64,000 nt of DNA from the sequence record MT446407.1; one strand, written 5' to 3'. The stretch is from Escherichia virus TH34. Of the stretch, positions 1-40,646 are shown in pieces. A program made the position numbers and the translations under genes. The notes beneath the pieces were generated by a model. The model made no database searches and was not told the DNA's origin. It saw only the letters and a list, made by a program, of their open reading frames with translations. Numbering within the stretch: the stretch's first letter is position 1; each line of letters starts with the position of its first letter.

Positions 1-1
1 A

Positions 2-214
2 AATTACGACACTGGCAAGAAGTCCAGCAAGGTAGTATTGATTGACCTGAATGACTACGACAACAAGGTTGTTGATAGCAAATATGCGATGCTTGTTAAC
101 GAAGCTACAGGCAAACAAATTACTATTGATCACATGATGCGGTCTAGTATGACGTTGTTCGATGAGTCGATGAACGAAATATCATCCGGTAACGGCACTT
201 GCACCAATCCGTAA
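2..214 (+). CDS. 3' end of an upstream gene (partial; 5' end outside window)
   Basis: Reading frame open from the window edge to TAA at 212-214; an intrinsic terminator follows immediately. Confidence 0.35.
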   Translation, partial: NYDTGKKSSKVVLIDLNDYDNKVVDSKYAMLVNEATGKQITIDHMMRSSMTLFDESMNEISSGNGTCTNP

Positions 215-233
215 CCAACCCGTAAGACTTCCT

Positions 234-259
234 AAGCGCCCTTTTGAGGCGCTTTTTTC
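234..259 (+). terminator. rho-independent terminator
   Basis: Stem AAGCGCC (234-240) / GGCGCTT (248-254), 7-nt loop, T6 run 253-258. Confidence 0.55.
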
Positions 260-761
260 ATTTCTAAGGTGATTGCACATCTTGCCCCTGTTTAGCTCGT
301 TAGAACGCCTCCTGTATGCCTTATTTTCGATTATAAGGCTTGTTTTCTTCCTCCCCTGATGTTATTCGTGCGCGTGCTCATCTATACCTAAAAGAAAGTG
401 AAATTATTTTAGAAAAAGGTATTGCTTTCTTTGCTTGATAGATTTATATTTGAATCTCAGGTTTAGTTATGCAGTCGGTAACAAGCCTGATAGGCTAGAC
501 TTTTAGCCTTGCTCTTTAAAAACAAGGTTTGCTTAGGAGTGGTGCTAACAAGCGTCATTACTATAAGGCACTTAGTTGATTATCCTAGTCGATTCCTCTT
601 TCATGCGTGGATTTGGCGGCCTATAAGGTCGATACTTCAAAGAAATCAGCGTTTAACAGTGTACTAGATTCTCTCAAGGCAAACTTTGTTTACTAGCTCT
701 TTAAAAATTCGATTAGTGTATCTTGATAAACTCCCAACCATGCCATAATGAGGATTTATCC

Positions 762-962
762 ATGAACATTTACACCTTCTCAAGCAAAGACACGCAAATC
801 ACTTGCACTAGCATTAACGTTACTAACATGATTATGAGAATAGTCGGTAGCACGTTACAGCAAGCGAAAGAAATGATAGCTGATGCCGACAATGGCAAAT
901 CTATCGCGGTGTTATCGCTGGTAAGTACGGATAAAGATTTAACCTTTAAACGTATGAACTAA
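762..962 (+). CDS. hypothetical small protein (67 aa)
   Basis: ATG 762 with GAGGA 7 nt upstream; track ORF 723 is the TTG-extended version; no similarity recognised. Confidence 0.25.
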   Translation: MNIYTFSSKDTQITCTSINVTNMIMRIVGSTLQQAKEMIADADNGKSIAVLSLVSTDKDLTFKRMN

Positions 963-1023
963 GGTAGGTTAGCGGCCTCAATGGTCGCTAGTTTATCAAG
1001 ATGCATTAATCGAAAAATAGTTG

Positions 1024-1051
1024 TTGACACGTCGAATCACTATGATAAGAT
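1024..1051 (+). promoter_or_regulatory. sigma70-type promoter candidate
   Basis: -35 TTGACA 1024-1029, 16-bp spacer, extended -10 TGaTAAGAT 1043-1051. Confidence 0.3.
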
Positions 1052-1255
1052 GTGATCTCAGCAGTACAGAACACTTCCAGATAGATGATTAGCATCATGT
1101 AAAAAGGCTTAAACTGGAAGGAGTGGGAACACTCAAGGCACGACGCCGAGGAAGACGGCGACATATTTAACGCTCTTTAACAAATTATCATCTTGCCCTT
1201 TCGCATAGATTCAAGCGAGATAAGGGAATAGAATAAAAGAAGATGATAAAAAGAG

Positions 1256-1283
1256 TTGACAAGGTGAAACACTCTGTTAGAAT
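1256..1283 (+). promoter_or_regulatory. strong sigma70-type promoter candidate
   Basis: -35 TTGACA 1256-1261, 16-bp spacer, extended -10 TGtTAGAAT 1275-1283, A-rich tract upstream. Confidence 0.5.
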
Positions 1284-1553
1284 GTTCACTAAGCAAGGCA
1301 ACTTGCTAAACAGTTCCCTAAGTGACGTAGCGCGGGAAAGGTGGCACATAGTGCAGCGCGTAGGTCGGGTATAGCCGCCCCGTTAGTGCATAAGTAGGCT
1401 TAAAAATGAAATGTTTGCGGAGTCATGAAAACCGCACCGCTCTTTAAAAATATGAATCAGAAAGTTAAGCGCAACCGCTTACAATCTTGTTAATCCAATG
1501 CGTGATTAACTAGTCATTCGAAAGAATAGACGAGAAAAAGATTTAAAAAGTGG

Positions 1554-1582
1554 TTGACACGCTAAACGGGATGATTCATAAT
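1554..1582 (+). promoter_or_regulatory. strong sigma70-type promoter candidate
   Basis: -35 TTGACA 1554-1559, 17-bp spacer, -10 CATAAT 1577-1582, A-rich tract upstream. Confidence 0.5.
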
Positions 1583-2493
1583 GAGCACTCACTAGGCAAC
1601 TAGTGAAACGCGAAACCACGGCGAACGGTGGCGGGAGGTGAGAAAGCACCTCGATAGATTTACCGCTCTTTAACAATTTAAACTTCTTCCTATATCGGTT
1701 GAACATGATGAGCAATAATAACCATTGCAAGTCATGCCAGATAAAACGATGTAAGGCGCTCTAGAGTATCAGAGAAAACGGCCTTGCAATCCCTTACTGG
1801 AAACGATGCCACTGATAAACGAAGTTATCGAGTACATGCAATGCTTAAGCTAATCACCTACGGTTAAAGGGTAGCGGCGGCGGGGCTAGTAAAGTGCTAC
1901 GGTAATAGACGTTAATCAGGGTAATCAATCCCGACTAATTTAGCTCAATAGCGAGCGACGGAATGAAGGTTAAAGAGTAGCAAATTGCTATTTAATAATA
2001 AGGTTTAAGTGTGAGTGTTTACTGAGCAAGTTGTTTGATGCACATCAATATGATGTGAGTACATAACAATGCAATGTAGTAAACCGTGAGAGAGATAATC
2101 AAACGCCAATTTATCAGGCGGTTAATGACTCTTTGCCATATACTTTCCCGTAGTAGGTGATAAGTCGGCTTAGAGAGTTAATATAAAAGGGTATCGCGGA
2201 GCGAACGTAAAGTAAACAGTAATGCTATCGGCTAGAAGGTTAGCTAATTAGAGATAGACACACTGCCTTATTATGATGATTAATCATCGCTGGCAAATCG
2301 GCTTCGTTTATAGCGATTAATAGAATCCACCGGATGAAACATCATGGCAAGTTAGGCGGCAAGGTTAACTCCTGATAAGTCCGCCTGATTTACCACTGAT
2401 TACTAATAGTTAGTGATTAGTGTTAAGTCATTGTGACTTGAATAGCTCATAGAGAGCGGCGCATAGAGCGTTTCAATTAAAAGGTAAATTATC

Positions 2494-3396
2494 ATGGCTA
2501 AATCTTTCAATCTGGTTAATGAATCCGGTTTTAACGCACTGGCTAACAACATTCGCAGCAATAACGCAGCAATTAAGCAAGATGTTTCTAACTTCCTGTT
2601 AGGTCACTTACAGCACTTCCGTGCTAACGGTAAGAAGTTAGACGTGTTACAGGCGGCGGTAGACTTCCTGTTAACTGAACGTTACCGTGATTTAGATGTG
2701 ATTGCAGTTGCAATTTCTTTCCTAACTCCTGTTAAGTACAACAGCGACGCGGCGAACGGTAAAAAGAAATGGATTAATCTGGAAGGTGAAGCGAAAGCGA
2801 AAGAAGACGCTAAACCTGAACAAGTTAAGGCCAAAATGGAACAAAACCGTGCCCGCTGGTCTAACTCCTTTGAACGCTTTGCGAAAGGCGAAGACGTGCA
2901 GGTTGATAACCCAGCATTTTATAAAGGTTGCAACGACAACGTTCCGGTAGCAAATCAGATTAACCAGAAGGTTAACGAAAACTTTAATCAGGACATTTAC
3001 GCTTTAACTGATCGTTTGGCTGCAATCCGTATTGAAGCGGCACTACTGGCCGATGAACGCAACGGAGCATCTTCTGATAACACTATCGCATTGAGTGAAG
3101 AAGTAGGCAAAGTTAAGAAAACTTTCGATTCACTCCTTAAGAAAGTAACCGCATCAACTGTATCTATCAGCGATGACTACTTGATTAACGCATCTTCAAA
3201 AGAGCTTGAATCTCTGGACTCATACGCTGATGAAATGGAAAAGGCGATCAACGAAATGACCGAAAAATTGTCTAACCTTCGCGGTCGTATCTCAAATGCT
3301 TCAACTGTCAAAGCGAACGAGAAAGCGGCGGCAGACGAGGAAGAAGTATTGCGTAAAGCTGCCGAGATCATGGCAGCACGCCAACAAGCTGCATAA
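2494..3396 (+). CDS. hypothetical early protein (300 aa)
   Basis: First long ORF after the promoter leader; ATG 2494 with AAAGG upstream; no motif recognised. Confidence 0.6.
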   Translation: MAKSFNLVNESGFNALANNIRSNNAAIKQDVSNFLLGHLQHFRANGKKLDVLQAAVDFLLTERYRDLDVIAVAISFLTPVKYNSDAANGKKKWINLEGEAKAKEDAKPEQVKAKMEQNRARWSNSFERFAKGEDVQVDNPAFYKGCNDNVPVANQINQKVNENFNQDIYALTDRLAAIRIEAALLADERNGASSDNTIALSEEVGKVKKTFDSLLKKVTASTVSISDDYLINASSKELESLDSYADEMEKAINEMTEKLSNLRGRISNASTVKANEKAAADEEEVLRKAAEIMAARQQAA

Positions 3397-3417
3397 CCTA
3401 CAATAAAGAACATATAA

Positions 3418-3450
3418 GGCGCTATTCGAAAGGGTAGCGCCTTTTCTTTT
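3418..3450 (+). terminator. rho-independent terminator
   Basis: Stem GGCGCTA (3418-3424) / TAGCGCC (3435-3441) followed by TTTTCTTTT. Confidence 0.55.
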
Positions 3451-3504
3451 ACTAGTGCATTGATTCAGTGTACTAATCAAAGAAACTAAAAAGAGATAAA
3501 CACC

Positions 3505-3729
3505 ATGCCAAAATTGAAAACAGAAGTTAAGATGTATCGTAACGTCATCAACAACATGACCTATCGAAAAACCGATAAATATGGAATCGAGTGTAAGTGC
3601 ATTCTTACCGGTGAATGGTATCCGTCGCCGATTCAAGAACAAGCGTTAATTGAAAACTCTGTTACTTACACTATCACGCAGGAAACTAAGCTAGGCCGAT
3701 TCCTTCGTAAGTTAGGGCTACGCAAATGA
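3505..3729 (+). CDS. hypothetical protein (74 aa)
   Basis: ATG-initiated ORF in compact array; no similarity recognised. Confidence 0.45.
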   Translation: MPKLKTEVKMYRNVINNMTYRKTDKYGIECKCILTGEWYPSPIQEQALIENSVTYTITQETKLGRFLRKLGLRK

Positions 3730-3947
3730 TCTTAACTCAATCCCATTTGTGTCCTATCTGTAAGAAAGCGCGTGCTAATAACAATCATCGCAAGTGTAGC
3801 AGAATCCTACAGCGTCGTCGTAATGATGCCGAGATGGATAAAATGCACAAAAACCAGCATGAGCACGAAAGAAAACAAGCGGCGATCAATGCATCTTCTG
3901 TAATGTATCGTCGTGTAAGATCACTCCAATATAAGGATGCTATCTAA
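3726..3947 (+). CDS. hypothetical basic Cys/His-containing protein (73 aa)
   Basis: ATGA overlap with upstream stop; CPIC...HRKC residues suggest possible metal binding. Confidence 0.45.
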   Translation: MILTQSHLCPICKKARANNNHRKCSRILQRRRNDAEMDKMHKNQHEHERKQAAINASSVMYRRVRSLQYKDAI

Positions 3948-4156
3948 TGACCAGTTTAAGCACGTTAGAGAAGAAAGCTACTCGACTGCTAGGGCGTCGT
4001 GTCCGCTATCACTACCTGAATAAAGGTAAGGCATTAACCGGACGTATTACCACGGTGTCCAGTCGCTGCGGTAAGTTAATATCTGTAAGTGTCCTCTTTG
4101 ATGGCGAACGTGTAGCAATTACACGTAGTTGGAAGTCGTTTAGTTTAATTGATTAA
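3947..4156 (+). CDS. hypothetical protein (69 aa)
   Basis: TAATG start/stop overlap with upstream gene; TAAGGA upstream. Confidence 0.45.
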   Translation: MTSLSTLEKKATRLLGRRVRYHYLNKGKALTGRITTVSSRCGKLISVSVLFDGERVAITRSWKSFSLID

Positions 4157-4226
4157 GTTATTTGGTTAAGCCTTGCTATGTGGTAAGGCTTGCACGATAT
4201 AATTTATCAGCGAAAGGAATAAAGCA

Positions 4227-4670
4227 ATGGCTAAATCTAAAATCAGCATGAAAGGCGGGCGTGTGTTCTCGATGAGTGAACTGGAAAAAGATAAGCCAGT
4301 CGCTACTAACCACATTAGCAAACGTAGCCTTAAACGTAGAGCTATCAAACAAACCGCTCAAGAACATAAACCCTCTACCGTAGCAAAGGTGTTAGGTCGT
4401 CGTGTTCATCGTGCTGATGCGCTTCTTAAAGCTGATCATAACCGTTCACTGTTAACCAACGGTGCAGCGAAAACAGAAGAAGAGAAACGTTTAGAAATCT
4501 ATTGCAACGGTCGCACTAAAGGTAAGCAGAAGAATAAAGGTAGCACTAAGCCACCGAAAGCTTTCCCTACTACTAGTCAATGTGCACCGGATGTTTTCTA
4601 CGCTGACAGTCAGCATAAGTGGGGAGTCGAAAAATACATTGACCCCATCAAGGAAGCGAGAGTAAAGTAA
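4227..4670 (+). CDS. hypothetical Lys/Arg-rich basic protein (147 aa)
   Basis: ATG 4227 with AAAGGA upstream; highly basic composition. Confidence 0.5.
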   Translation: MAKSKISMKGGRVFSMSELEKDKPVATNHISKRSLKRRAIKQTAQEHKPSTVAKVLGRRVHRADALLKADHNRSLLTNGAAKTEEEKRLEIYCNGRTKGKQKNKGSTKPPKAFPTTSQCAPDVFYADSQHKWGVEKYIDPIKEARVK

Positions 4671-4728
4671 GCCTCTTCTCTGTACCAGTAGTCAACTACT
4701 ATGACGCTCTTCTTGAGCGTCTTTGTGT
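4671..4728 (+). repeat. conserved post-stop element, copy 1 (GCCTCTTCTCT...CTACTATGACGC + hairpin)
   Basis: Near-identical 11-12-nt blocks shared with 11773-11828; both copies start right after a stop codon and end in a terminator hairpin. Confidence 0.4.
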
Positions 4729-4751
4729 CTGCCGCCTTTGTGCGGCTTTTT
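4703..4751 (+). terminator. tandem rho-independent terminators
   Basis: Hairpin GACGCTC/GAGCGTC (4703-4721) + TTTGTGT; hairpin GCCGC/GCGGC (4731-4746) + TTTTT. Confidence 0.5.
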
Positions 4752-4911
4752 GCGTAGCTAGTGATGCCTAAAGGGCACTCCCTTTGTGAATCATTGGCAT
4801 GGTTCAATCCCTATTGGATGGTCATTTGACCGGGCCTTTAACGAGGCCGCTTTTTTAAGAGTCTTTACGAGGATTCTTAAATGAGTGAGGTCATGTTCAC
4901 TCTTTCAGGTC

Positions 4912-4938
4912 GCCCCGTCTTCGGATGGGGCTTTTTTA
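4912..4938 (+). terminator. rho-independent terminator
   Basis: Stem GCCCC (4912-4916) / GGGGC (4927-4931), then T6. Confidence 0.55.
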
Positions 4939-4989
4939 TGCCCGTAAAACAGGAGGTAGTAAGTTCTGATAACGACAGCCCAGCTACTT

Positions 4990-5376
4990 TTGACATTGAC
5001 TATTTATTATGAGGCAGGGAATCAGCCAACCGCTTGCAAAGCATTAGTAGCGGATACCGTAATAAACAGAATGTCACAACGAAAACTGACTGCCGAGCAG
5101 GTTATAAACCAACGAAACCAGTTCGAGTGGATACCCGTCTTATTAAAGAAGGAGAAACCTTTCAAACGTTATGTAAAGCTAATTCGTGATGATAATCCCC
5201 TGATAAAGAAGTCAATCAGAGAGAGCGAGCGGCTTGCAAGGCGTGCACTGAAGAAAAGTTATGTGCCTTTATACAGTGGTACATACTTTCAGAGTAAGAG
5301 CGAAGGGGTGCCAAAGTGGTATACCAATCCAATGTATTGTGGTGATTTAGTGTTCAATAATAGTGCCCGTGACTGA
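4990..5376 (+). CDS. SleB/CwlJ-like cell-wall hydrolase domain protein (start uncertain)
   Basis: YYEAGNQP...VINRM...NQFEW resembles the EARGE...NR...QF pattern of the cell-wall hydrolase family; track start is TTG; frame is open upstream to 4963 behind a strong AGGAGG. Confidence 0.4.
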   Translation: MTLTIYYEAGNQPTACKALVADTVINRMSQRKLTAEQVINQRNQFEWIPVLLKKEKPFKRYVKLIRDDNPLIKKSIRESERLARRALKKSYVPLYSGTYFQSKSEGVPKWYTNPMYCGDLVFNNSARD

Positions 5377-5577
5377 TTCATAGGTGCCAAGATTGACAAA
5401 CTAAATTTCCTTATAAATCACCTACTTATGATTTTCTCTGCAAAAAGTGGTAGTGATTCGGAACCAGAGGTAATGACTGTATATAGACCTCTGAAAATTA
5501 TTGATAGAAATTAAGTTTAGAAATAATAAATTCTAAATAATATTTCTTATAATATCTTACTTTAAGAGGATAAAGAT

Positions 5578-5883
5578 ATGTCTTTAGAGGTGTATAAGTT
5601 CCTTCTCGTACTCACTGTAACGATTTCTACTCTGGGATTTATTGCTTTAAGTAATAAGTCAGCAAGCTGGAAGCGTCGTTATGAGTTTCTTCTTAAGCAA
5701 GAGGAAGTCTTTAATGCTGATGTTCGTTCCAAGTTGGTCAAGATGCAGGAGCAAATTGAAGCACGTAATGATCGTTTGGCTTCTTTGGGTTGGGAGATTA
5801 AGAGTATTCAAGATCTCAACAAGCAACTCACTGAAGAGATTAAACGCCAGAATGAGGAAACAGAGGATGCGCTCAAAGGTTAA
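5578..5883 (+). CDS. membrane-anchored coiled-coil protein (101 aa)
   Basis: AAGAGGA upstream; N-terminal hydrophobic helix then charged heptad-like region. Confidence 0.5.
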   Translation: MSLEVYKFLLVLTVTISTLGFIALSNKSASWKRRYEFLLKQEEVFNADVRSKLVKMQEQIEARNDRLASLGWEIKSIQDLNKQLTEEIKRQNEETEDALKG

Positions 5884-6043
5884 GTTTACCACTGGTCACA
5901 CTGTTCGCCTTGTTGGCGGTACTCAAACAGGCGTTATTCGTCGGAGAACAACAATTGACGGTGTTCTCTGTTATCTTGTTCAGTGGAATGGTGAATCCTC
6001 TCCTTCCTTCGAACGTCGTACTGATTTGGTGTTAATCAAATGA
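5867..6043 (+). CDS. hypothetical small protein (58 aa)
   Basis: ATG 5867 with GAGGA upstream; track ORF 5681 is an overlapping extension. Confidence 0.4.
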   Translation: MRSKVKFTTGHTVRLVGGTQTGVIRRRTTIDGVLCYLVQWNGESSPSFERRTDLVLIK

Positions 6044-6225
6044 CAAGTAAAGTAAAGATCAATGATAACGTTGTCTATGCACAAAAAGGTTTCTCATTGG
6101 TTCCTTTAATTGGGAAGGTTATTTGGGTGTGTGGTGGTGTTGTTCAAATTAAAGCACCAAGTGGTCGTCTTGTTACTCGTTGGCGTGATGAAGTCATCAT
6201 TCTTCCGAAGGAGTACGGTCAATGA
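6040..6225 (+). CDS. hypothetical small protein (61 aa), resembles preceding ORF
   Basis: ATGA-coupled start; shares a KVK...V..G... pattern with 5867..6043. Confidence 0.45.
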   Translation: MTSKVKINDNVVYAQKGFSLVPLIGKVIWVCGGVVQIKAPSGRLVTRWRDEVIILPKEYGQ

Positions 6226-6461
6226 AGATGAATTTCGAAATCGTCCCAAGGACTAAACAGAAGACGTTAACTTTCGGTGATTTATCTAATGGAGATATCT
6301 TCAAGTTTAAAAATCCCGATGCTGACACTTTTTTCTGGATGAAGATTGCTTCGCCGTTTTCGTCGGCTATGAAGTTAAGCAACACCTCTGACATACTCAA
6401 GGTTTCTGCGAACGCTGAAGTTAAAAAGTATGAATACAAAATTCTTATTGAGGGTAAATAA
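6222..6461 (+). CDS. small protein, GD(V/I)F paralog family
   Basis: Motif TFGDLSNGDIFKF near N-terminus; ATGA-coupled. Confidence 0.5.
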   Translation: MKMNFEIVPRTKQKTLTFGDLSNGDIFKFKNPDADTFFWMKIASPFSSAMKLSNTSDILKVSANAEVKKYEYKILIEGK

Positions 6462-6691
6462 TGAAAATCAACCTCTCCCCTGAAGTTGTTACTAAAAAGC
6501 TCGATGAGTTGCGTCCGGGTGATGTGTTCCGTTTACCTGTTAACTCAGAACACCTCTACCTAAAAACTGATGTGTGTTTGAGTGGTATGCGTCGAGTGGT
6601 TGGTCTTGGTCAGGGAACACTGTTCCAGTTACAGGAAGATCACGAAGTTATTCCTGTACGTAATGTTCAAGTAACTCGTATCGGTGGTTAA
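6461..6691 (+). CDS. small protein, GD(V/I)F paralog family
   Basis: Motif LRPGDVFRL; TAATG-coupled. Confidence 0.5.
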   Translation: MKINLSPEVVTKKLDELRPGDVFRLPVNSEHLYLKTDVCLSGMRRVVGLGQGTLFQLQEDHEVIPVRNVQVTRIGG

Positions 6692-6916
6692 ATGAAGATT
6701 GATATCGACAATACACCAGCGGTTGTAACTCTCGGTGATCTAAATCCGGGTGAAGTCTTCCAGTTTAATTACAACGAAACTCAATATTACATGCGTACTG
6801 CATGTTACGGTGAAAACAAAAGTTATTTTGTTAACCTTTATACAGGTAAACGTGAATCTGAGTGTAAATCAACTGTAGTCAGACCTTTGCCTAACGCACG
6901 ATTAACCAATAAGTAA
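6692..6916 (+). CDS. small protein, GD(V/I)F paralog family
   Basis: Motif LGDLNPGEVFQF. Confidence 0.5.
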   Translation: MKIDIDNTPAVVTLGDLNPGEVFQFNYNETQYYMRTACYGENKSYFVNLYTGKRESECKSTVVRPLPNARLTNK

Positions 6917-6923
6917 CATCGAC

Positions 6924-7040
6924 TTATAGCCCTTGTGCTTATCAGAGGGCTATGTGAGGATGTTCCTCAATTAACTATAATCTCAATGCCATATGGCTCA
7001 CCGCTAGGGCGAGACTTGTCTCAAACATCCGGTGATAGAC
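6924..7040 (+). repeat. conserved intergenic element, copy A (possible structured RNA or operator)
   Basis: Shares with 12771-12900 an identical hairpin ATAGCCCT/AGGGCTAT (12-nt loop) plus two further stems that differ in sequence but keep pairing (GAGGA/TCCTC vs GAGC/GCTC; GAGAC/GTCTC vs GAGGA/TCCTC). Confidence 0.4.
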
Positions 7041-7146
7041 TAAAACCTGTTTAATTTTCGAATGGCATTCCGATATGTAGGGGTATGTATCGGTTTGGGA
7101 TAGAGAACAATCTAGGGGTAGAGAGTTCTCGACAGTTTGTACAAGC

Positions 7147-7180
7147 GGAAGCCTTAACGTGTAGGGCTTCCCTTTATATT
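7147..7180 (+). terminator. rho-independent terminator candidate
   Basis: Stem GGAAGCC (7147-7153) / GGCTTCC (7165-7171), then CTTTATATT. Confidence 0.4.
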
Positions 7181-7219
7181 AACTGGCAACCCTGCCTCCA
7201 CTAACAAAGAGAGAACGTT

Positions 7220-7360
7220 ATGAAGAAGTCAACCAAGCGTATGAACCGTCCTGAACGTATGGATGCAGTAGCAAATGGCGCTCTGAAGATTGAGTCTGCC
7301 ATGCTTCGTCTGACAACTAACATCCGTAAACGTCAAGGTGATTGGTTCTATGGCGGCTGA
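7220..7360 (+). CDS. hypothetical small protein (46 aa)
   Basis: ATG 7220 to TGA 7358-7360; below the track length cut-off; weak RBS. Confidence 0.3.
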   Translation: MKKSTKRMNRPERMDAVANGALKIESAMLRLTTNIRKRQGDWFYGG

Positions 7361-7547
7361 GCATGATGTTGGTATTCGTGAGATTATTCGTCTTGCGATA
7401 ATTGATCACCCTAACAGTCGCAATGGCCTATTGTTACAGGTTTCTAAATGTCTTAATTGTGACAAAGATGTGGCCAAAGAATTATTCTTTGCATTCATCT
7501 ATAACGCAGATGATCGCTTCTTGAATAACAAGTTGCGTAGTGCTTAA
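7350..7547 (+). CDS. hypothetical protein (65 aa)
   Basis: ATG 7350 with AAGGTG upstream, in frame with track ORF 7338. Confidence 0.4.
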   Translation: MAAEHDVGIREIIRLAIIDHPNSRNGLLLQVSKCLNCDKDVAKELFFAFIYNADDRFLNNKLRSA

Positions 7548-7552
7548 TAAGA

Positions 7553-7583
7553 GGCTGCCCTTCGGGGTGGCCTTTGTTGTTTT
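7553..7583 (+). terminator. rho-independent terminator
   Basis: Stem GGCTGCCC / GGGTGGCC (two G-U pairs), TTCG loop, then TTTGTTGTTTT. Confidence 0.5.
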
Positions 7584-7626
7584 AATTAAGAGGTAGCTCT
7601 TACTTAAACTAATAAGAGAGGTTGAT

Positions 7627-7857
7627 ATGAAGATTAACGTTGTAAAGAAAGAAAAGAAATCTGCTACCTTTGCTGACTTAGCAATCGGCGACGTGTTTCA
7701 ACTTGCCGATGGTATAAAAACTCTGATCTACATGCGTGTTTTCAATAGCCGTGCTATCTGCCTTAACAATCCTACATGCCTCGAATCTACAACACGGATT
7801 AACAGCGATACTTCTATCATCCAGCTCCGTGCAGAGCTAATTGTCACCGAGGTTTGA
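7627..7857 (+). CDS. small protein, GD(V/I)F paralog family
   Basis: Motif FADLAIGDVFQL. Confidence 0.5.
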   Translation: MKINVVKKEKKSATFADLAIGDVFQLADGIKTLIYMRVFNSRAICLNNPTCLESTTRINSDTSIIQLRAELIVTEV

Positions 7858-7858
7858 T

Positions 7859-8068
7859 GTGAACATTCGTTTAGTTCGTAAGCAAGATGGCAGACAGGTT
7901 GTGCTAGGTGAGATTGTTTGTGCTGCACATAACCTACTCCCTGAAAAAGATGAAACTATCTGGTTTGATGGAGAGCAGCGCCGAGTATTGTCGGTTGTTA
8001 AATCTTTCGAGCCAAAGCGTAACAATGAAAAAGCTCTTACCTGTTGGTTTGAGGTTGATATTACATAG
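7859..8068 (+). CDS. hypothetical protein (start GTG 7859 or TTG 7841)
   Basis: No in-frame ATG; GTG 7859 follows upstream stop and a GAGG. Confidence 0.4.
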   Translation: MNIRLVRKQDGRQVVLGEIVCAAHNLLPEKDETIWFDGEQRRVLSVVKSFEPKRNNEKALTCWFEVDIT

Positions 8069-8076
8069 AGGTTGAT

Positions 8077-8328
8077 ATGCGTAATCCATTTTTTGATCGT
8101 AAAGGTCGCACCGAAATTCTGATACCTTCTATCGGTGTGCCGGTTAAGTTTGGTGAGATGCGTGCTGGTGATTTCTTCATGGAATCAGGACATCTTTATC
8201 TGAAGATCGACCTTGAACATGCTGTTGAAATTCTTAGTGATAATAAGCCAATCATAGGAACTTCAATGTTCAGTACAAATCACACTGTATTTGTTGTCAA
8301 CGTCCAGATTGAGATTAAAGCGCCATGA
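8077..8328 (+). CDS. small protein, GD(V/I)F paralog family
   Basis: Motif FGEMRAGDFFME. Confidence 0.5.
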   Translation: MRNPFFDRKGRTEILIPSIGVPVKFGEMRAGDFFMESGHLYLKIDLEHAVEILSDNKPIIGTSMFSTNHTVFVVNVQIEIKAP

Positions 8329-8633
8329 CAATTTCATCTTCAACTCGCTGCAACCCTAATGTAGATATCCGTGCTCAAATGTCTAAGATGCCCGGTGTGA
8401 CTCATTTAGAGTTCACCTACAGTCACTCGCGGTATGAACCGGGCTTTACTGTGGTAATAAAATCCCCGTGGTTAACAATGACATTACTGTCGGATGAAGT
8501 TGAGAAGGCAGTGAATGGTATTAAATCAGGCGGGCTTAAACTTTTATCCACTGAACTGGCTGATGAGTTCATGCCTCTTATCCGTAAAGGTGTGGCTAAA
8601 ATGAATAAAATGATGGAGGCTGCAAAGCAATGA
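8325..8633 (+). CDS. hypothetical protein (102 aa)
   Basis: ATGA-coupled ORF. Confidence 0.5.
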   Translation: MTISSSTRCNPNVDIRAQMSKMPGVTHLEFTYSHSRYEPGFTVVIKSPWLTMTLLSDEVEKAVNGIKSGGLKLLSTELADEFMPLIRKGVAKMNKMMEAAKQ

Positions 8634-8884
8634 CAAACTTCCGAGCAGCAGTTATTACGAAAGTAATAGCAGTTGGTGACGTAATGATGCAGGTTCCTCT
8701 AAACACTCGTTACATTGCCATTGACCAAACAGGTTATGTGTGGGCGTGGAAGTGGAAGCCTACTTATAATGAGCTGTTCGACGAATACCAGTGCGCTGGA
8801 CCTTACATGCCAACCTTAATTGGTGTGTATGAAGGCAGCTCTTGTCATACTCCTCAGTTAATTGAACTACCGGCGTGTGCTTAA
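8630..8884 (+). CDS. hypothetical protein (84 aa)
   Basis: ATGA-coupled ORF. Confidence 0.5.
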   Translation: MTNFRAAVITKVIAVGDVMMQVPLNTRYIAIDQTGYVWAWKWKPTYNELFDEYQCAGPYMPTLIGVYEGSSCHTPQLIELPACA

Positions 8885-8885
8885 T

Positions 8886-9047
8886 ATGATTAAGTGGCTA
8901 AAGCGCGTCTTCCATTGTCATGATTGGAAGATTATTAACACCCGTCCTCTGGTCTATACAGATTCAGATGGGAACAATGACAAGGGCACACGTTACGTTA
9001 TTCAGTGTAAGGTGTGTGGTGATGTTAGTCATCGTGATATAATCTAA
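8886..9047 (+). CDS. small HxW...CKVCG protein, paralog 1 of 3
   Basis: ATG 8886 follows upstream TAA; MIKWLKRVFHCHDW...CKVCG. Confidence 0.45.
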   Translation: MIKWLKRVFHCHDWKIINTRPLVYTDSDGNNDKGTRYVIQCKVCGDVSHRDII

Positions 9048-9056
9048 GGAATCATT

Positions 9057-9221
9057 ATGATCAAATGGTTCAAACGCTTCTTTCATTTCCATGAGTGGGA
9101 AGATCTTCATACTTATGAACTGACGATCACGAATAGACTTACTGACAGAGAGCGACAAGGTTTGCGTATCTACTCTCGATGTAAAGTGTGTGGTCTGCAC
9201 AAGAAAACAGATCTGATCTAA
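9057..9221 (+). CDS. small HxW...CKVCG protein, paralog 2 of 3
   Basis: ATG 9057 with AAGGA upstream; MIKWFKRFFHFHEW...CKVCG; below track cut-off. Confidence 0.45.
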   Translation: MIKWFKRFFHFHEWEDLHTYELTITNRLTDRERQGLRIYSRCKVCGLHKKTDLI

Positions 9222-9229
9222 GGGGTGTT

Positions 9230-9439
9230 ATGTTCTTTCGTAAGAAAAAGCCCGAAGATTCTGGATGTAAACACGAGTGGGTGATCACTGAAAACCTACA
9301 CATCACTCACGCTAAAGACACTCCAGTCGAAGCGAAAGAGTCTCGTGTGTCTCGTGTTTGTAAACTCTGTTTGAAAATAGAGCAGCACAAAGTTCCCGGT
9401 CATATCGGTCACGATGTGGCCTTGCGTATCTTCAGTTAA
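9230..9439 (+). CDS. small HxW...CKLC protein, paralog 3 of 3
   Basis: ATG 9230 with AAGGGG upstream; CKHEW...CKLC. Confidence 0.45.
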   Translation: MFFRKKKPEDSGCKHEWVITENLHITHAKDTPVEAKESRVSRVCKLCLKIEQHKVPGHIGHDVALRIFS

Positions 9440-9448
9440 ACAAACTCA

Positions 9449-9524
9449 GCACCCTTAGCTCAATGGATAGAGCAGCGACCTTCTAAGTCGTTGGTTACAG
9501 GTTCGAGTCCTGTAGGGTGCACCA
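9449..9524 (+). tRNA. tRNA-Arg: tRNA-Arg (anticodon UCU)
   Basis: Cloverleaf by eye: acceptor GCACCCT/AGGGTGC, D-arm GCTC-AATGGATA-GAGC, anticodon loop CUUCUAA, T-arm CAGG-TTCGAGT-CCTG, encoded CCA. Confidence 0.8.
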
Positions 9525-9542
9525 ATCAATATAGGAGGGCAT

Positions 9543-9869
9543 ATGAGCTGGGGTGGTGTAATTACCTTAACCTGTATCTTTATCGCCTGTGTAGCTCTTA
9601 CAGGCTGCGTACAGCATCGTCCTGATGGGTGGTGTGCATTATCTGTAGAAGGTGTCTGTGTTTCCCGTTGGCACAGCGGAGAGAAGATTCCTAGTGGAGA
9701 AATTGATATGCGTTATGCTGGTGCTTCTTGTTCCAATGGCGGTGCTGTTGACGAGAAGGCTTATGCAGGTCGTGACATGGCTACCCAAGGTGATTGGTCA
9801 CGTTACGACTTCATCTCCCGTGGTGAGATGTGTGGTGGCTCTGTGACAACAACTGGTAAGGAGTGGTGA
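9543..9869 (+). CDS. predicted lipoprotein (108 aa)
   Basis: Strong RBS AGGAGGG; signal peptide ending in lipobox LTGC. Confidence 0.55.
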   Translation: MSWGGVITLTCIFIACVALTGCVQHRPDGWCALSVEGVCVSRWHSGEKIPSGEIDMRYAGASCSNGGAVDEKAYAGRDMATQGDWSRYDFISRGEMCGGSVTTTGKEW

Positions 9870-9870
9870 T

Positions 9871-10125
9871 ATGTCCGGTCATTATTCTGATACGAAAGCT
9901 CTACTTGAAACAGCGGCTCAAACTTCATGCCAACAGCAAGTAAAGATGTTGTTGGTTGATATTCGTAATCTTCGCTGGCTTATCAAAGAAGGTCATATCG
10001 GAAACGCTGCCTATTACAACGTTAAAGATATCCTTCGCCGCCAGCACTTCCTTATCCACGGAAACGTGGTAACTCGCAACTATCAATGGAACGGTCAATG
10101 GTTACAGCAGCGTATGTCCTCCTGA
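9871..10125 (+). CDS. hypothetical protein (84 aa)
   Basis: ATG 9871 with TAAGGAG upstream. Confidence 0.45.
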   Translation: MSGHYSDTKALLETAAQTSCQQQVKMLLVDIRNLRWLIKEGHIGNAAYYNVKDILRRQHFLIHGNVVTRNYQWNGQWLQQRMSS

Positions 10126-10352
10126 TTTATGTTATTGGTTGGTGGTTGGCAGCCATTGTAGTTAAATGGTGCTTCAAAACCAATACTCTCTACAACTTCT
10201 TCCATTCCTCATGGAGTGGTAAGCCTGATGAATACTCTATTTGGACGGTGATATTCTTCTGGCCTTTTATGCTGATCTTTATCCTCTTCTTACCTTTACT
10301 TATGTTGATAGGCTGGGTAATGGATAAGGTGACAGTCTTTATTACTAAGTAA
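10086..10352 (+). CDS. small integral membrane protein
   Basis: Two or three hydrophobic helices; start 10086 or 10098. Confidence 0.45.
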   Translation: MERSMVTAAYVLLIYVIGWWLAAIVVKWCFKTNTLYNFFHSSWSGKPDEYSIWTVIFFWPFMLIFILFLPLLMLIGWVMDKVTVFITK

Positions 10353-10631
10353 TATCGTGAAGGATTCTTACGAGAGTCCTTTGAGATAGGACTTCAGATC
10401 TCCTATCAACTAACCGCTCAATGTTGAGCATTTTAATCACACAAGCCCCTCATGGGCTGGGTTTAATGCCGGTAAGCGTTTTACGCTATCCACTACAGCA
10501 TCGGATTGTTAGGTCTTACATGCAATATTAATTAATAGGATATGGGAGGATTCGTCCCCTCCCCCTATTTATGAAAGCATTCTTCCGAGAGTTCTCTCAT
10601 AAATTGGTCCATAACTAAAGGTGATGAAGTT

Positions 10632-10862
10632 ATGCCGGTAACAATCTGGGAAACAAAGCGACACCTTAAAGCTATTCAGATGGAACGCAAAAACGAACTG
10701 AGAATGATTTATGAAAAGTTAACCTACTCGGTTCTCTACCATCGTCGTCTGGTTAGAATTATAAAACCTAGTGCATTCGGTACTGCTCACTGGTATAAAG
10801 TTACCAATGCGTATCGAGATGCAGTTAATGCTCTTGAAGAGTTCGTAAACTCTCACAAATAA
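10632..10862 (+). CDS. hypothetical protein (76 aa)
   Basis: ATG 10632 with AAAGGTGA upstream. Confidence 0.45.
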   Translation: MPVTIWETKRHLKAIQMERKNELRMIYEKLTYSVLYHRRLVRIIKPSAFGTAHWYKVTNAYRDAVNALEEFVNSHK

Positions 10863-10872
10863 AGGTGATGAA

Positions 10873-11127
10873 ATGAAAGTTAACATGCCAGCAGGTAAAA
10901 ATTCAATACCCCTCAGTGCTTTGCGACTTGGGGATTGCTTCATGTACCCTAACAGTGAAGATGGTGATTTGTACATCTTACTGTCTACCGAGTTCTCAAC
11001 TCGACTCTGCATCAAGGGCGCGGATGAGCACAGACTTGTAGCCTGTCTTAACACGGGCAGAGCGACAGCACCTCGTAAAGATGTTGCTGTTATTCCTATT
11101 AAAGCTGAAGCAACTATTAAGGAATGA
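10873..11127 (+). CDS. small protein, GD(V/I)F paralog family (divergent)
   Basis: Motif LRLGDCFMY; AAAGGTGA upstream. Confidence 0.5.
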   Translation: MKVNMPAGKNSIPLSALRLGDCFMYPNSEDGDLYILLSTEFSTRLCIKGADEHRLVACLNTGRATAPRKDVAVIPIKAEATIKE

Positions 11128-11130
11128 GCA

Positions 11131-11397
11131 ATGACAATCCTTACTATCAATAAGACCCATGTTGCAGACATTCCTGTGACTGTGAAGGATGTTCCTGAGG
11201 GTTCATTCTTTACCTTAAATGAAGACGATGTACAGATTGTATATCTTAAGGTAAATAAATCTTCTAACAACGCTGAATACAACCGAGCGGTAGTTGTTAG
11301 CTCCGGATATGTCCGTCAACTGGCGCACAACCTTCGTGTACGTGTTCTCTACACATCAGCAACTCTGGATTTAGTGGAGAAGATCAGTGAAACATAA
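11131..11397 (+). CDS. small protein, possible GD(V/I)F family member
   Basis: Motif VPEGSFFTL; AAGGA upstream. Confidence 0.45.
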   Translation: MTILTINKTHVADIPVTVKDVPEGSFFTLNEDDVQIVYLKVNKSSNNAEYNRAVVVSSGYVRQLAHNLRVRVLYTSATLDLVEKISET

Positions 11398-11659
11398 GGA
11401 TGGTTCAAAGTATGTATCACTATTGGATGCAGCCCTTCTCTGCACGTACTGGCTCCTTATTGTTATTGGGGTCGTGCTAGGGCTATGTGGTATCGTACAA
11501 TTCTTTATGTACCTGCAAAGCGTGTTAGATATCACACTAGCTAACACTATAATCCTTGCAATTCTCGGTATTATTGCTTTCTGTGTGATTGTCTTCTTCG
11601 TTTGGTTATCTATGAACGACGACTCTACACACCTTCTATTGACAGGAGAAAATCAGTGA
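11387..11659 (+). CDS. small integral membrane protein
   Basis: GTG start with GGAG upstream; two hydrophobic helices. Confidence 0.45.
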   Translation: MKHKDGSKYVSLLDAALLCTYWLLIVIGVVLGLCGIVQFFMYLQSVLDITLANTIILAILGIIAFCVIVFFVWLSMNDDSTHLLLTGENQ

Positions 11660-11772
11660 GAAAACGTGCCTACTCTGAAGAAGAGATGGTTAGCCTGAAA
11701 GGCTTTGGTCAGCGACAGCCTGATGGCTCAGTTATCTGGTACATTAACGGACAGAAAAAGGCAAGTAAATAA
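11656..11772 (+). CDS. hypothetical small protein (38 aa)
   Basis: GTG 11656 overlapping upstream TGA, AGGAG 7 nt upstream; ends directly at repeat copy 2. Confidence 0.3.
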   Translation: MRKRAYSEEEMVSLKGFGQRQPDGSVIWYINGQKKASK

Positions 11773-11828
11773 GCCCTCTTCTCTCCTCCCTTTAGCTACT
11801 ATGACGCCTCTCTTTTCGGCGCTGTTTT
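11773..11828 (+). repeat. conserved post-stop element, copy 2 (GCCCTCTTCTCT...CTACTATGACGC + weak terminator)
   Basis: Same blocks as 4671-4728; GC stem 11805-11808/11818-11821 then CTGTTTT. Confidence 0.4.
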
Positions 11829-11840
11829 GGAGCTTCAAAA

Positions 11841-12254
11841 ATGTCTGGGAAATTCCCCAACGTAAGCAAGAAATTGGCTTACCTCACGTATAAAGAAAAC
11901 ATTGATCTTCTGGTCAAACTTTATCCGGCTTCATTCAACAAGCAATTCCCTCTTCCTTTGGAGCTTAACATCCATAAGGAAATCGCCCGCAAGACCGGTT
12001 GGTCAGCGGAGAAAACAAGCATGGTGCTCAACATCTGGACTACTCGTATGGAGTATGTGATGATGGCATGTAGCACTGGTAAGCGCTTCAAGCTGCACTC
12101 TGTAGCTATGAAGATTCGTAGTCCTATTGACCCTGAGCCGATGGCTGGGTTCAGCAGTCGTCTGAAAGCTTTCCGTGATAAACGTCGTGTGGTGAAGTTC
12201 AAGCACGATTTCTCGTACAAGTTTGGATACGAAGCGTTCCAATTCGTTGTTTAA
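11841..12254 (+). CDS. ProQ/FinO-like RNA-binding protein candidate
   Basis: LVKLYPASF..FPLPLELNIHKEIARKTGWSAEKTSMVLNIWTTRMEY aligns by eye to the ProQ/FinO N-terminal domain. Confidence 0.4.
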   Translation: MSGKFPNVSKKLAYLTYKENIDLLVKLYPASFNKQFPLPLELNIHKEIARKTGWSAEKTSMVLNIWTTRMEYVMMACSTGKRFKLHSVAMKIRSPIDPEPMAGFSSRLKAFRDKRRVVKFKHDFSYKFGYEAFQFVV

Positions 12255-12282
12255 TCTCTCTTTAATTTAAGGTAATAAAAAC

Positions 12283-12516
12283 ATGTCTAAAGTTAGCGCA
12301 ATTGATGCCATCCGTCAGCCGTTCCAGTTTGAATCCAAGTCAACTCAGACCCAAAGTGAACCGCGTCAGATTCGTCTGGGTGGTACAGAGAAGTCTGTGT
12401 TTGATATTGCGAAAAACAAAAGCGTGACCATCGTCGAAGGCGGTGAGCTGGTTAATGTTTCCCACCGTATCCGCACTGGCAAAACTGCCAAAGATCGTGC
12501 TAAGAAAGGTCTGTAA
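12283..12516 (+). CDS. hypothetical protein (77 aa)
   Basis: ATG-initiated ORF in compact array. Confidence 0.45.
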   Translation: MSKVSAIDAIRQPFQFESKSTQTQSEPRQIRLGGTEKSVFDIAKNKSVTIVEGGELVNVSHRIRTGKTAKDRAKKGL

Positions 12517-12767
12517 TGCAAATTGCTAATAAAACCCCTCCTGAATCAATTACCCAAGTAAAGGATATGTCACCGGGAGATGTATTTCGTGCAACGGAAT
12601 ATCCGGGGGAGTTCTTTATTCGAATCCCCTCAGCTTCTGTTGGTGGCATTGCTAAACCTGTAACAGCAGTTCAGCTAAGTACAGGACATCTCTTCCGTTT
12701 AGAGATTGACATGGTTGTAATCCCTGTTCCAACAGCAATCCTTCGCTTTGACGGAGCCACAGAGTAA
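12516..12767 (+). CDS. small protein, GD(V/I)F paralog family
   Basis: Motif MSPGDVFRATEYPGEFF. Confidence 0.5.
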   Translation: MQIANKTPPESITQVKDMSPGDVFRATEYPGEFFIRIPSASVGGIAKPVTAVQLSTGHLFRLEIDMVVIPVPTAILRFDGATE

Positions 12768-12770
12768 CAT

Positions 12771-12900
12771 TTATAGCCCTTGTGAGTATCAGAGGGCTAT
12801 GTGAGCTATTCTGGCTCAACTAACCTAAACTTAATTTAATCTTACCCGTATGGGGCCGATGCTAGGGAGAGGAATAGTCCTCGAACATCCGTCGGATAGA
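12771..12900 (+). repeat. conserved intergenic element, copy B
   Basis: See copy A (6924-7040); also follows the stop of a GD(V/I)F family gene. Confidence 0.4.
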
Positions 12901-12963
12901 ATATTTTAAGAGCAGGTTATCCACAGATATTGGGTGATATCTATTTAATTGGCCTTAAAGCTT

Positions 12964-12988
12964 GGCTCTCTTAGGAGAGTCCTTTTTT
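12964..12988 (+). terminator. rho-independent terminator
   Basis: Stem GGCTCTC / GAGAGTCC then T6. Confidence 0.5.
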
Positions 12989-13008
12989 AAGTTCAAAGAA
13001 GAGGTTGT

Positions 13009-13176
13009 ATGGATAATAAGTTGAAAGTTAAGTTCTTATTGGCAGCAATCTTTATTTGCTTAGCCACCGTGGGGTTTGTCAGAACCTATTCTTTTGCATC
13101 TTGTGAGTTAAGCAAGAACAACAGAGGGGCTTACAACTGGCTGACCAATCAATGTGATAAACAGGAGAAGTTATGA
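13009..13176 (+). CDS. small secreted/membrane protein (55 aa)
   Basis: ATG 13009 with AGAAGAGG upstream; N-terminal hydrophobic segment; ATGA-coupled to next gene. Confidence 0.3.
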   Translation: MDNKLKVKFLLAAIFICLATVGFVRTYSFASCELSKNNRGAYNWLTNQCDKQEKL

Positions 13177-13535
13177 ACCTACGCCCCATCAAAGGCCATG
13201 TGAACCTGTCTACGCTGCATAAAGTAGCAAATGATTTGGGTGGCATGGACGAGAATGATTTGGAGCAGAATTTGCTCTGGATTGCTAATGGTATCAAGGC
13301 GGCAAAGGCCAAAATGGCTCGTGCACAAAGCAAACTAAAGGCGAATAAATATCTTATTCGTCGTCGTAATACCTTACCTCAGGATGTGGTGAGTTTGGCT
13401 GTGGCAGGATACAATGCAGCAGAGGTAGAACTTCAGGAAGCAGAATTTGAAAAGATGCGCTTCCAAGAGAACTATCGAAACTTCCGTAGCATTGCCTACA
13501 TTCGTAAATCTCTGAGCCTTTTGGTAGCAGAGTAA
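13173..13535 (+). CDS. hypothetical protein (120 aa)
   Basis: ATG 13173 with ACAGGAGAAG upstream. Confidence 0.5.
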   Translation: MNLRPIKGHVNLSTLHKVANDLGGMDENDLEQNLLWIANGIKAAKAKMARAQSKLKANKYLIRRRNTLPQDVVSLAVAGYNAAEVELQEAEFEKMRFQENYRNFRSIAYIRKSLSLLVAE

Positions 13536-13546
13536 AGAGGTAAAAG

Positions 13547-33503: not shown

Positions 33504-33827
33504 ATGATGACTGATAAGGCAAAACGTGATTATGCACAAGAAAGACGTACCGCAATCAAACGTGGGGAGACAGGTGTTGGTAGCAAGAGCGGAGATGCTC
33601 AGCGCCACCGTGCACGTCGCATCGTTGAAAAGCGCGATGGAAAAGCTGCTGTCCGAGGTAAAGATGTTGGACATAAACGATCAATCAAGTCGGGAGGTTC
33701 TAATGCGTCAAGTAACTTACGTGTTGAATCAGTCTCTGGAAATCGCTCGAACGGCGGCAAAAGTGGAGATCGTGCTGGAAAATCAGCAGGAGGAGTCAAA
33801 TCGAGAAAAGGCGCTCTAAGTCAATGA
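33504..33827 (+). CDS. hypothetical basic Gly/Ser/Arg-rich protein (107 aa)
   Basis: ATG 33504 with AAGGAG upstream; stop ATGA-coupled to next gene. Confidence 0.45.
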   Translation: MMTDKAKRDYAQERRTAIKRGETGVGSKSGDAQRHRARRIVEKRDGKAAVRGKDVGHKRSIKSGGSNASSNLRVESVSGNRSNGGKSGDRAGKSAGGVKSRKGALSQ

Positions 33828-37454: not shown

Positions 37455-37697
37455 GTGACTCTAACCTCTAAAGAATTAAAAGAAACTCTGGAAACAACCG
37501 AAGGTAAACAACATCTCCTTGCACAGATTCACTCTATGGGTAAGGATACCTTACGTCAAGCTTTGTATGAACTGACTACTGCTGTTATCCAGATTGAAGC
37601 TAACGCTGAAGAAAGTTTGATTAAGTTAGAAGCTGCTAATGCAGAAATCAATGGATTGAAGGTTCGTATTATCGAGCTGGAAACACAAAATAAATAA
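37455..37697 (+). CDS. small coiled-coil protein (80 aa)
   Basis: GTG start; heptad-like charged sequence. Confidence 0.45.
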   Translation: MTLTSKELKETLETTEGKQHLLAQIHSMGKDTLRQALYELTTAVIQIEANAEESLIKLEAANAEINGLKVRIIELETQNK

Positions 37698-37720
37698 GCT
37701 ACCTTCGGGTGGCTTTTCTT
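37698..37720 (+). terminator. rho-independent terminator
   Basis: Stem GCTACC / GGTGGC with TTCG loop then TTTCTT. Confidence 0.5.
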
Positions 37721-37735
37721 GTCTAAGGAGCTGGT

Positions 37736-40587: not shown

Positions 40588-40610
40588 TGAATCTCTCCTT
40601 GTAATAGCTT

Positions 40611-40634
40611 AGCCACCTTCGGGTGGCTTTTTTC
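40611..40634 (+). terminator. rho-independent terminator
   Basis: Stem AGCCACC / GGTGGCT with TTCG loop then T6. Confidence 0.6.
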
Positions 40635-40646
40635 GTTGGAGTTAAA

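Follow-up and report, generated by a model that had tools for sequence, protein, structure and literature searches.

What is the short sequence that follows two early genes of an Escherichia phage, and does it belong to a transcription terminator or act as a signal in its own right? The DNA analysed here (the window, 64,000 nucleotides of Escherichia virus TH34, sequence record MT446407.1) comes from a phiEco32-like E. coli podophage of the subfamily Gordonclarkvirinae, whose closest records are TH43, Bas88 and ECBP2 with 91-96% identity around the repeated element. The initial annotation had noted that the sequences AGTAAA(G)TAAGCC(C)TCTTCTCT and CTACTATGACGC recur behind the genes ending at 4670 and 11772, and both are indeed present 3' of these stops in the window sequence. 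It had described them as a conserved block fused to terminators and suggested a functional site, e.g., for protein binding, RNA 3'-end formation or processing, rather than simple termination. In our analysis, the element is best read, with a probability of roughly 60%, as one of three conserved recognition sites (sites A, B and C) of a site-specific nicking system of the type described for the phages tf and LUZ24, an interpretation built on sequence comparison.

The repeated element comprises two blocks on the + strand, which is also the strand of the early genes of the window. Block 1 begins within the last codons of the upstream gene and spans its TAA stop, in copy A at 4661-4681 (AGTAAAGTAAGCCTCTTCTCT; stop at 4668-4670) and in copy B at 11764-11784 (AGTAAATAAGCCCTCTTCTCT; stop at 11770-11772), while block 2, CTACTATGACGC, is identical in both copies (4696-4707 and 11796-11807). 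Identity of a 12-mer is by itself not rare, with about 160 identical pairs expected in 64 kb; the gapped local alignment of the two 70-nt segments over both blocks reached a score of 26, compared to 7.6 ± 1.6 and a maximum of 18 for about 3000 random segment pairs. Copy A lies 3' of a 147-aa gene (4227-4670, phi32_120 homologue) and copy B 3' of a 38-aa gene (11656-11772, phi32_94 homologue). Paralogy of these two genes was considered and rejected, since block 1 encodes their C-termini in different reading frames and they belong to different PHROGs; a Pfam family was found for neither. Block 1 consists partly of stop-codon context, in two different reading frames, and of a pyrimidine tract. 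Early intergenic DNA, in which sites A and B are located, also harbors a 35-nt repeat (6924-6958 and 12771-12805, +; 94% identical) with the hairpin TTATAGCCCT-TGTG..TATCAG-AGGGCTATGTGAG, which is probably the "first repeated element" alluded to in the initial annotation. At the other end of the window, three tandem 90-nt copies (63556-63825 in + coordinates; 100%, 99% and 76% identical) probably lie in a tail-fibre-type gene on the - strand.

The invariant part of the element is S-TACTRTGAC-G. At site A, the core TACTATGAC occupies 4697-4705 (+) as an exact match to TACTRTGMC, flanked by C4696 on one side and by G4706 and C4707 on the other, and the same core is found at site B (11797-11805, +; flanks C11796, G11806 and C11807). 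The suggestion of a functional site had been tied to the occurrence of further copies and to conservation in related phages, and our search yielded both. A third match, site C with the core TACTGTGAC, is located at 47388-47396 on the - strand (flanks C47397 and G47387), inside the 1472-aa gene of a gp26-homologue virion protein (44855-49273, -). All three sites point in the sense direction of their own transcription unit, A and B with the early genes and C with the late genes. The bare 9-mer TACTRTGMC occurs at chance level in the window (three matches, two on + and one on -, vs. 1.9 expected); for the 11-mer S-TACTRTGAC-G the count is three vs. 0.08 expected (P ~8e-5). In phiEco32, exactly three TACTRTGAC are present in 77.5 kb (2.3 expected), and these are orthologous to those of the window; with just three sites per genome, the bare 9-mer is consequently not enriched. 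The over-representation and confinement to a single strand which are typical for tf and LUZ24 are likewise not seen in the window, with two sites on + and one on -.

To follow conservation, we compared the early region of 13 related phages and, in addition, phiEco32, two genomes of Nieuwekanaalvirus and two contigs from IMG/VR. Of the 17 relatives examined, which represent three Gordonclarkvirinae genera, 16 carry both site A and site B at the orthologous position, and A, B and C are orthologous in the genomes of Suseptimavirus, Kuravirus and Nieuwekanaalvirus, the single loss being site A of E20-1. The core of site A is invariant except for the R position (16/17 relatives), and site B is kept behind the 38-aa phi32_94 homologue in all 17. 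In the intergenic DNA around site A, TACT[A/G]TGACG is the sole fully conserved stretch besides the downstream terminator. It is this invariant island amid variable intergenic DNA of three genera, together with the recurrence of the core in a structural gene on the other strand, where no terminator follows, that bears out a functional site distinct from termination. The only core position varying among relatives is R, which is also degenerate in the published consensus; it reads G, A and G at sites A, B and C of phiEco32, G at all sites of 4E8 and KBNP1711, and A, A and G in the window. In Kuravirus proper, copies A and B have the form G-TACTRTGAC-GC and are preceded by CCYCTTTTA. Pattern scans of IMG/VR returned only four Kuravirus-like contigs, the other matches having unrelated flanks and apparently being due to chance.

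The exception, E20-1 (OP293233, ~6700-6720), carries CACTACGAC in place of the site A core, with hairpin and terminator retained. The change sits in a locally divergent segment, which also lengthens the upstream ORF. E20-1 could be a natural site-A-minus variant or possibly reflect a sequencing artefact; as this phage is presumably viable without the site A core, site A appears to be dispensable.

Site C was found in all 12 other genomes checked. In an alignment of ten genomes of Suseptimavirus and Kuravirus type, about 45 nt around it do not vary at all, even at synonymous positions, and this island is embedded in a poorly conserved E/P/S/T-rich linker with indels and many substitutions; the core with GGAAGA is kept in Nieuwekanaalvirus, too. 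Neither a stop codon nor a terminator nor significant structure (fold z -0.24) was found at site C, which identifies the core motif, and not a gene-end module, as the element shared by the three sites. About 14 nt upstream of site C and within the invariant island, there is also a perfect palindrome, GAACCGGTTC (47411-47420, -), whose synonymous positions are kept in the ten aligned genomes of the Suseptimavirus and Kuravirus types and not in Nieuwekanaalvirus.

How, then, does the core relate to the adjacent hairpins? The terminator hairpin reported behind each copy is well supported at copy A, where the terminator scan called hairpin A1 (4703-4721, +; GACGCTC-TTCTT-GAGCGTC, followed by TTTGTGTCT; fold energy -14 kcal/mol, z -5.4) as well as a canonical intrinsic terminator, A2 (4731-4751, +; GCCGC-CTTTGT-GCGGC-TTTTT). 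Terminator A2 is almost invariant in the aligned Suseptimavirus and Kuravirus-type genomes and marks where the upstream early transcription unit actually ends. At copy B, the hairpin is weak (11805-11830, +; CGCC-TCTCTTTTC-GGCG, then CTGTTTTGG), with 4 bp and a T-run, -5.2 kcal/mol and z -1.4; it received no call by the terminator scan and is located just upstream of the Shine-Dalgarno sequence and ATG of the gene starting at 11841. The combination of GC-rich hairpin and T-run is therefore present at A, weak at B and missing at C, so that a fusion to terminators describes copy A, fits copy B poorly and does not extend to the third copy. The conservation which had been ascribed to the "non-hairpin part" is real, but this part is not separate from the hairpin: the 5' arm of A1 coincides with the 3' end of the motif at site A, i.e., GACGC at the 3' end of block 2 serves as hairpin arm and the two overlap. 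In relatives, the 3' arm of the hairpin changes along with the 5' arm and pairing to GACGC(Y) is kept. The first hairpin behind the motif lacks a T-run in Kuravirus proper, which argues that the conserved core is not simply a terminator. Compared to intrinsic terminators in general, the GC-rich hairpin with T-run after site A, and its weaker counterpart after site B, are alike; different are the position of the conserved part, which is located 5' of the stem with no more than an overlap between the two, the variation of the hairpins by copy and genus, and the presence of the same core within an ORF without terminator. The element would thus most likely be a nick site beside a terminator, not a part of it. 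A hairpin as general component of the motif was rejected, as no consistent inverted repeat was found at the sites of 7-11, tf and LUZ24.

The early region is rich in terminators, with 25 found in 1-14000 vs. 10.6 expected. Upstream of the first long early gene, 1-2400 holds no convincing ORF and several consensus-like promoters and terminators; its counterpart is unannotated in relatives, e.g., as a 2.1-kb gap in Bas88, and it may encode non-coding RNAs or act as RNA polymerase decoy. This non-coding 2.4-kb leader contains five boxA-like elements, (C)GCTCTTTAA(C/A)AA, at 511-522, 696-707, 1172-1183, 1439-1450 and 1665-1676 (+), which resemble rrn boxA (TGCTCTTTAACAA). Three of them (1172, 1439 and 1665) follow strong sigma-70-like promoters at a distance of about 75-160 nt (1024-1051, 1256-1283 and 1554-1582), and the set may provide Nus-dependent antitermination through the early-region terminators. 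Further along, two similar terminator modules (37689-37722 and 40603-40636, +; AATA..TAGCYACCTTCGGGTGGCTTTT; 82% identical) are another case of reused terminator sequence.

Two features next to the core deserve separate consideration. A pyrimidine tract directly follows the TAA stop in copy A (4671-4681, +; GCCTCTTCTCT; P 0.04, marginal) and in copy B (11773-11793, +; GCCCTCTTCTCTCCTCCCTTT; P 0.005), the latter being conserved in all relatives; in Kuravirus proper, the tract runs directly into the core (GCCCCCTCTTTTAG-TACT). It was rejected as a required component of the element, since it is not significant at site C of the window (P 0.36) and absent at the sites of 7-11, LUZ24 and tf; an accessory or coincidental feature is the best explanation. 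The base directly before the motif (-1) tends to match across the sites of one genome: C precedes each of the three sites in Suseptimavirus, in 4E8 and KBNP1711, and in the window, ECBP2, SU7, UKE3 and EK010, whereas G does so in Kuravirus proper and in phiEco32, ES17 and two IMG/VR genomes, as well as at the two sites checked in WFI101126. At site C, a change of this base costs a Ser-to-Thr substitution. Such matching suggests a common reader of the sites, and shared ancestry and recombination may account for part of the pattern. An absolute covariation is weakened by EP335, which has G at A, where the flank is of Kuravirus type, and C at B and C; both bases are evidently tolerated.

Phage genomes with sequence-specific nicks were first described about 50 years ago, for T5, and later for phiKMV-like phages, tf and LUZ24-like phages. 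To our knowledge, neither the function nor the enzyme has been established for any of these site-specific phage nicks. For tf, the nick consensus 5'-TACT/RTGMC-3' was mapped by run-off sequencing, ligase-sensitive alkaline gels and primer extension (PMC3517423), and the tf record (HE611333) lists 14 annotated sci features, of which sci13 and sci14 are antisense to the late genes containing them. In LUZ24-like phages of P. aeruginosa, read pile-ups were described at GTACTATGAC/GTACTGTGAC, also given as GTACT/ATGAC (PMC3634792, PMC4482731), and Rembedalsseter showed strand-specific drops of nanopore coverage at WACTRTGAC, a motif enriched in 60 related phages (PMC11780129). The core of the window is identical to the tf/LUZ24-type consensus, including the degenerate R. 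This likeness extends to the flanks: the base behind the motif is G in 12 of 14 sites of tf and in 8 of 9 of LUZ24, usually with G or C before the motif, and all Gordonclarkvirinae sites fit S-N9-G, as C-N9-G at the three window sites and as G-N9-G in Kuravirus proper.

The phages in question are also related by their replication genes. A tblastn search with the ORFs of the window revealed a syntenic block common to the window, LUZ24 and tf with its order kept, comprising a COOH-NH2 ligase (41% identity), primase-helicase (47%) and DNA polymerase (36-40%), along with an amidoligase, GFAT, an ATP-grasp protein, GGCT, an exonuclease subunit and a 5'-3' exonuclease, so that the window phage shares the replication genes which are common to LUZ24 and tf. 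Across the motif-bearing phage groups, identity of the primase-helicase amounts to 47-54%. The same replication/amidoligase module is present in Salmonella phage 7-11 (NC_015938), a relative of phiEco32, and here we observed 13 TACTRTGMC vs. 2.35 expected (P ~1e-6), 12 of them on the - strand. They are located mostly at the early end (e.g., 88039, 87012, 86028, 85070 and 83748, -) and nearly all read AC-TACTGTGAC-G; S-TACTRTGAC-G occurs 11 times vs. 0.12 expected (P ~1e-18). On sequence grounds, this distribution is the pattern expected of a nicked genome, and with 13 copies, 12 of which share a strand, it suggests that the motif extends well beyond Pseudomonas phages. Among IMG/VR relatives of the primase-helicase, three contigs of 82-90 kb carry AC-TACTRTGMC, followed by G in four of five cases; all five sites are on the strand of the primase-helicase gene, which is suggestive, though the numbers are small. 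In the literature searched, we found no report of the motif for 7-11 or phiEco32-like phages.

Taken together, the core 5'-S-TACT|RTGAC-G-3' would represent the recognition site of a nicking system homologous to that of tf, the LUZ24-like phages and Rembedalsseter. Sites A and B would be its early intergenic sites on the sense strand of the early genes, and site C, within the large virion-protein gene, would lie on the opposite strand, which is sense for the late genes. By analogy to tf, a phage-encoded nuclease acting late in infection is expected to break the strand that carries the motif behind its fourth base, placing the predicted nicks between T4700 and A4701 (site A, +), between T11800 and A11801 (site B, +) and between 47393 and 47392 (site C, -), and the product would be a ligatable 3'-OH/5'-P nick in the packaged DNA. 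The hairpins and terminators behind A and B would then be separate transcription signals, which came to reuse GACGC as 5' arm. The sequences show the match to a mapped nick consensus, the conservation, the third copy away from any terminator, the relatedness of the phage groups and the enrichment in 7-11, and we infer nicking in the window phage, its timing and the enzyme; our literature search found no report demonstrating a nick in any phiEco32-like phage.

The resemblance to tf, LUZ24 and Rembedalsseter goes beyond the 9-nt core with G or C before and G after it. Their sites, too, are often early and intergenic, lying close behind stop codons or at the beginnings of genes, and most occupy the coding strand; site positions are conserved among relatives, and the syntenic module is accompanied by short terminal repeats and by converging early and late units. 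In contrast, 8-14 sites on one strand are found in those phages and three on both strands in Gordonclarkvirinae, two of the latter being joined to hairpins or terminators with a pyrimidine tract before them. The use of both strands, the low copy number and the chance-level 9-mer, as well as the loss in E20-1 and the -1 base of EP335, count against the nick interpretation. T5-like (~R/GCGCRGG) and phiKMV-like (CGACNNNNNCCTA/CTCCGG) nicks follow the same concept of a few conserved, sequence-specific nicks in virion DNA, although recognition sequences and phage lineages are unrelated; in T5 the nicks are dispensable, much like site A in E20-1.

A weak candidate for the nickase is a very basic 107-aa protein encoded at 33504-33827 (+; phrog_4590, phi32_58 family). 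It is 55-60% identical to LUZ24 gp26, tf_29 and 7-11 gp068 and thereby more conserved than the DNA polymerase, and aligning 35 homologues showed H57, N71 and N80 to be unchanged throughout, at a spacing like that of HNH motifs. In hhalign, these residues are in register with the HNH_3 motif of the neighbouring homing endonuclease (E 0.026), and the AlphaFold model (pLDDT 69.5) features a beta-beta-alpha unit at residues 53-82. Foldseek matches in the PDB were nearly all HNH nucleases, including McrA, colicin E9/E7 and the Gme HNH nicking enzyme, every one with E >= 1, and some source databases label homologues as HNH or McrA. No Pfam match was obtained even at E 10, and a profile search against PDB sequences came back empty. 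The candidate resembles small HNH nicking endonucleases such as Gme HNH (PDB 4h9d) in its size of about 100 aa, the H/N/N spacing and the predicted beta-beta-alpha unit; unlike these, it lacks zinc-binding cysteines and a significant fold or sequence match. Nor was the motif enriched near homologues, with counts of 1, 1, 3 and 0 within 10 kb of them (contigs of ~65-112 kb).

Other explanations have to be weighed against a nick site. An RNA-level signal, in which block and hairpin form a 3' end or a processing or stability element of early and late mRNAs, e.g., an endoribonuclease site, would fit the location of all three sites on the sense strand of their transcription unit and the succession of stop codon, element and hairpin at A and B; depositors also placed a terminator label here in SU7 and, in 4E8, on the hairpin right after the site B core. 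However, site C lies, without significant structure, in the middle of a 1472-aa ORF, the hairpin of Kuravirus proper is devoid of a T-run, and sci13 and sci14 of tf are physically nicked in the DNA despite being antisense to late genes, an orientation also found for one LUZ24 and one 7-11 site. A search of Rfam 15 identified no family at the sites: the sole gathering-level match in the window was tRNA-Arg, none overlapped the core at E <= 1, and weak sRNA-like matches at 4849-4939 were far under the gathering score. The RNA 3'-end or processing signal considered by the initial annotation thus yields to a site recognised in DNA, and we regard it as quite unlikely. Such a site could also be bound for another purpose by the shared replication module, with no stable nick resulting, e.g., as a recognition or loading site of the primase-helicase, an origin element or the operator of a regulator. 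In favor of this, the motif is common to groups sharing primase-helicase (47-54%) and polymerase, GTC, at the core of T7-type primase sites, occurs in its complement, and site C sits in an invariant island together with the palindrome GAACCGGTTC. Wherever the motif was examined experimentally, though, the read-out was a nick after the fourth base; a primer begun at GTC would presumably start 3 nt from the nick position, and the window sequence shows no origin-type iterons or AT-rich stretches beside the sites. We therefore consider this option unlikely.

The chance-level count of the bare 9-mer, the contribution of stop-codon context to block 1 and the mosaic nature of early phage regions, as in EP335 with its Kuravirus-type flank at site A, might instead suggest a functionless relic of duplication or recombination between gene ends and terminators, resembling the nick motif by chance. 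This is largely refuted by the conservation data, the core being invariant across three genera in which the flanks diverge and the third copy residing, with conserved synonymous sites, in a gene unrelated to those at A and B; the extended motif (P ~8e-5) and the strong enrichment and strand bias in 7-11 likewise leave it highly improbable. Finally, the similarity of TACTAT to a -10 hexamer, the occasional annotation of the motif's RTG as start codon in tf and 7-11, and the ORFs of 18 and 30 codons beginning at the ATG of sites A and B might point to a promoter, either for host sigma-70 or the phage sigma factor gp36, or to the start of a small ORF at the ATG inside TACTATGAC. We consider this barely conceivable, as neither a -35 nor an extended -10 is present and the promoter scan was empty at the sites. 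The gp36 promoter consensus, tAATGTAtA, with sites upstream of genes 6, 13, 26, 40, 58 and 68 (PMC8948821, PMC4331800), differs from the motif, and both a gp36 middle/late and a sigma-70 promoter were rejected for want of a consensus match at the sites. A small hydrophobic peptide starting from the motif ATG was likewise dismissed, since indels of 1-2 nt break the frame in relatives and no Shine-Dalgarno sequence precedes it; in ES17, this ORF stops after five codons.

A nick site therefore remains our preferred reading of sites A, B and C, and the core is best explained as a nick-associated motif of the tf/LUZ24 type in a phage group for which the literature searched yielded no report of it. 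For annotation, this means that these spots should not be treated simply as terminators. In a more far-reaching and, in our view, rather doubtful scenario, TACT|RTGAC nicking would be ancestral to the LUZ24-, tf-, 7-11- and phiEco32-like podophages, which have one replication module in common, with the co-conserved HNH-like protein as enzyme, and would have been pared down to three sites in Gordonclarkvirinae. The two fixed sites at the ends of early operons could then confer a regulatory or topological role on the nick, e.g., in staged DNA entry, as a boundary of transcription units or as a swivel during packaging. If nicking holds true for phiEco32-like coliphages, the unexplained nicks of phage genomes would become testable in E. 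coli, which would offer the advantages of three sites per genome, of natural variants (E20-1, the R position and the -1 base) and of the K-12-infecting BASEL phages Bas86-94.
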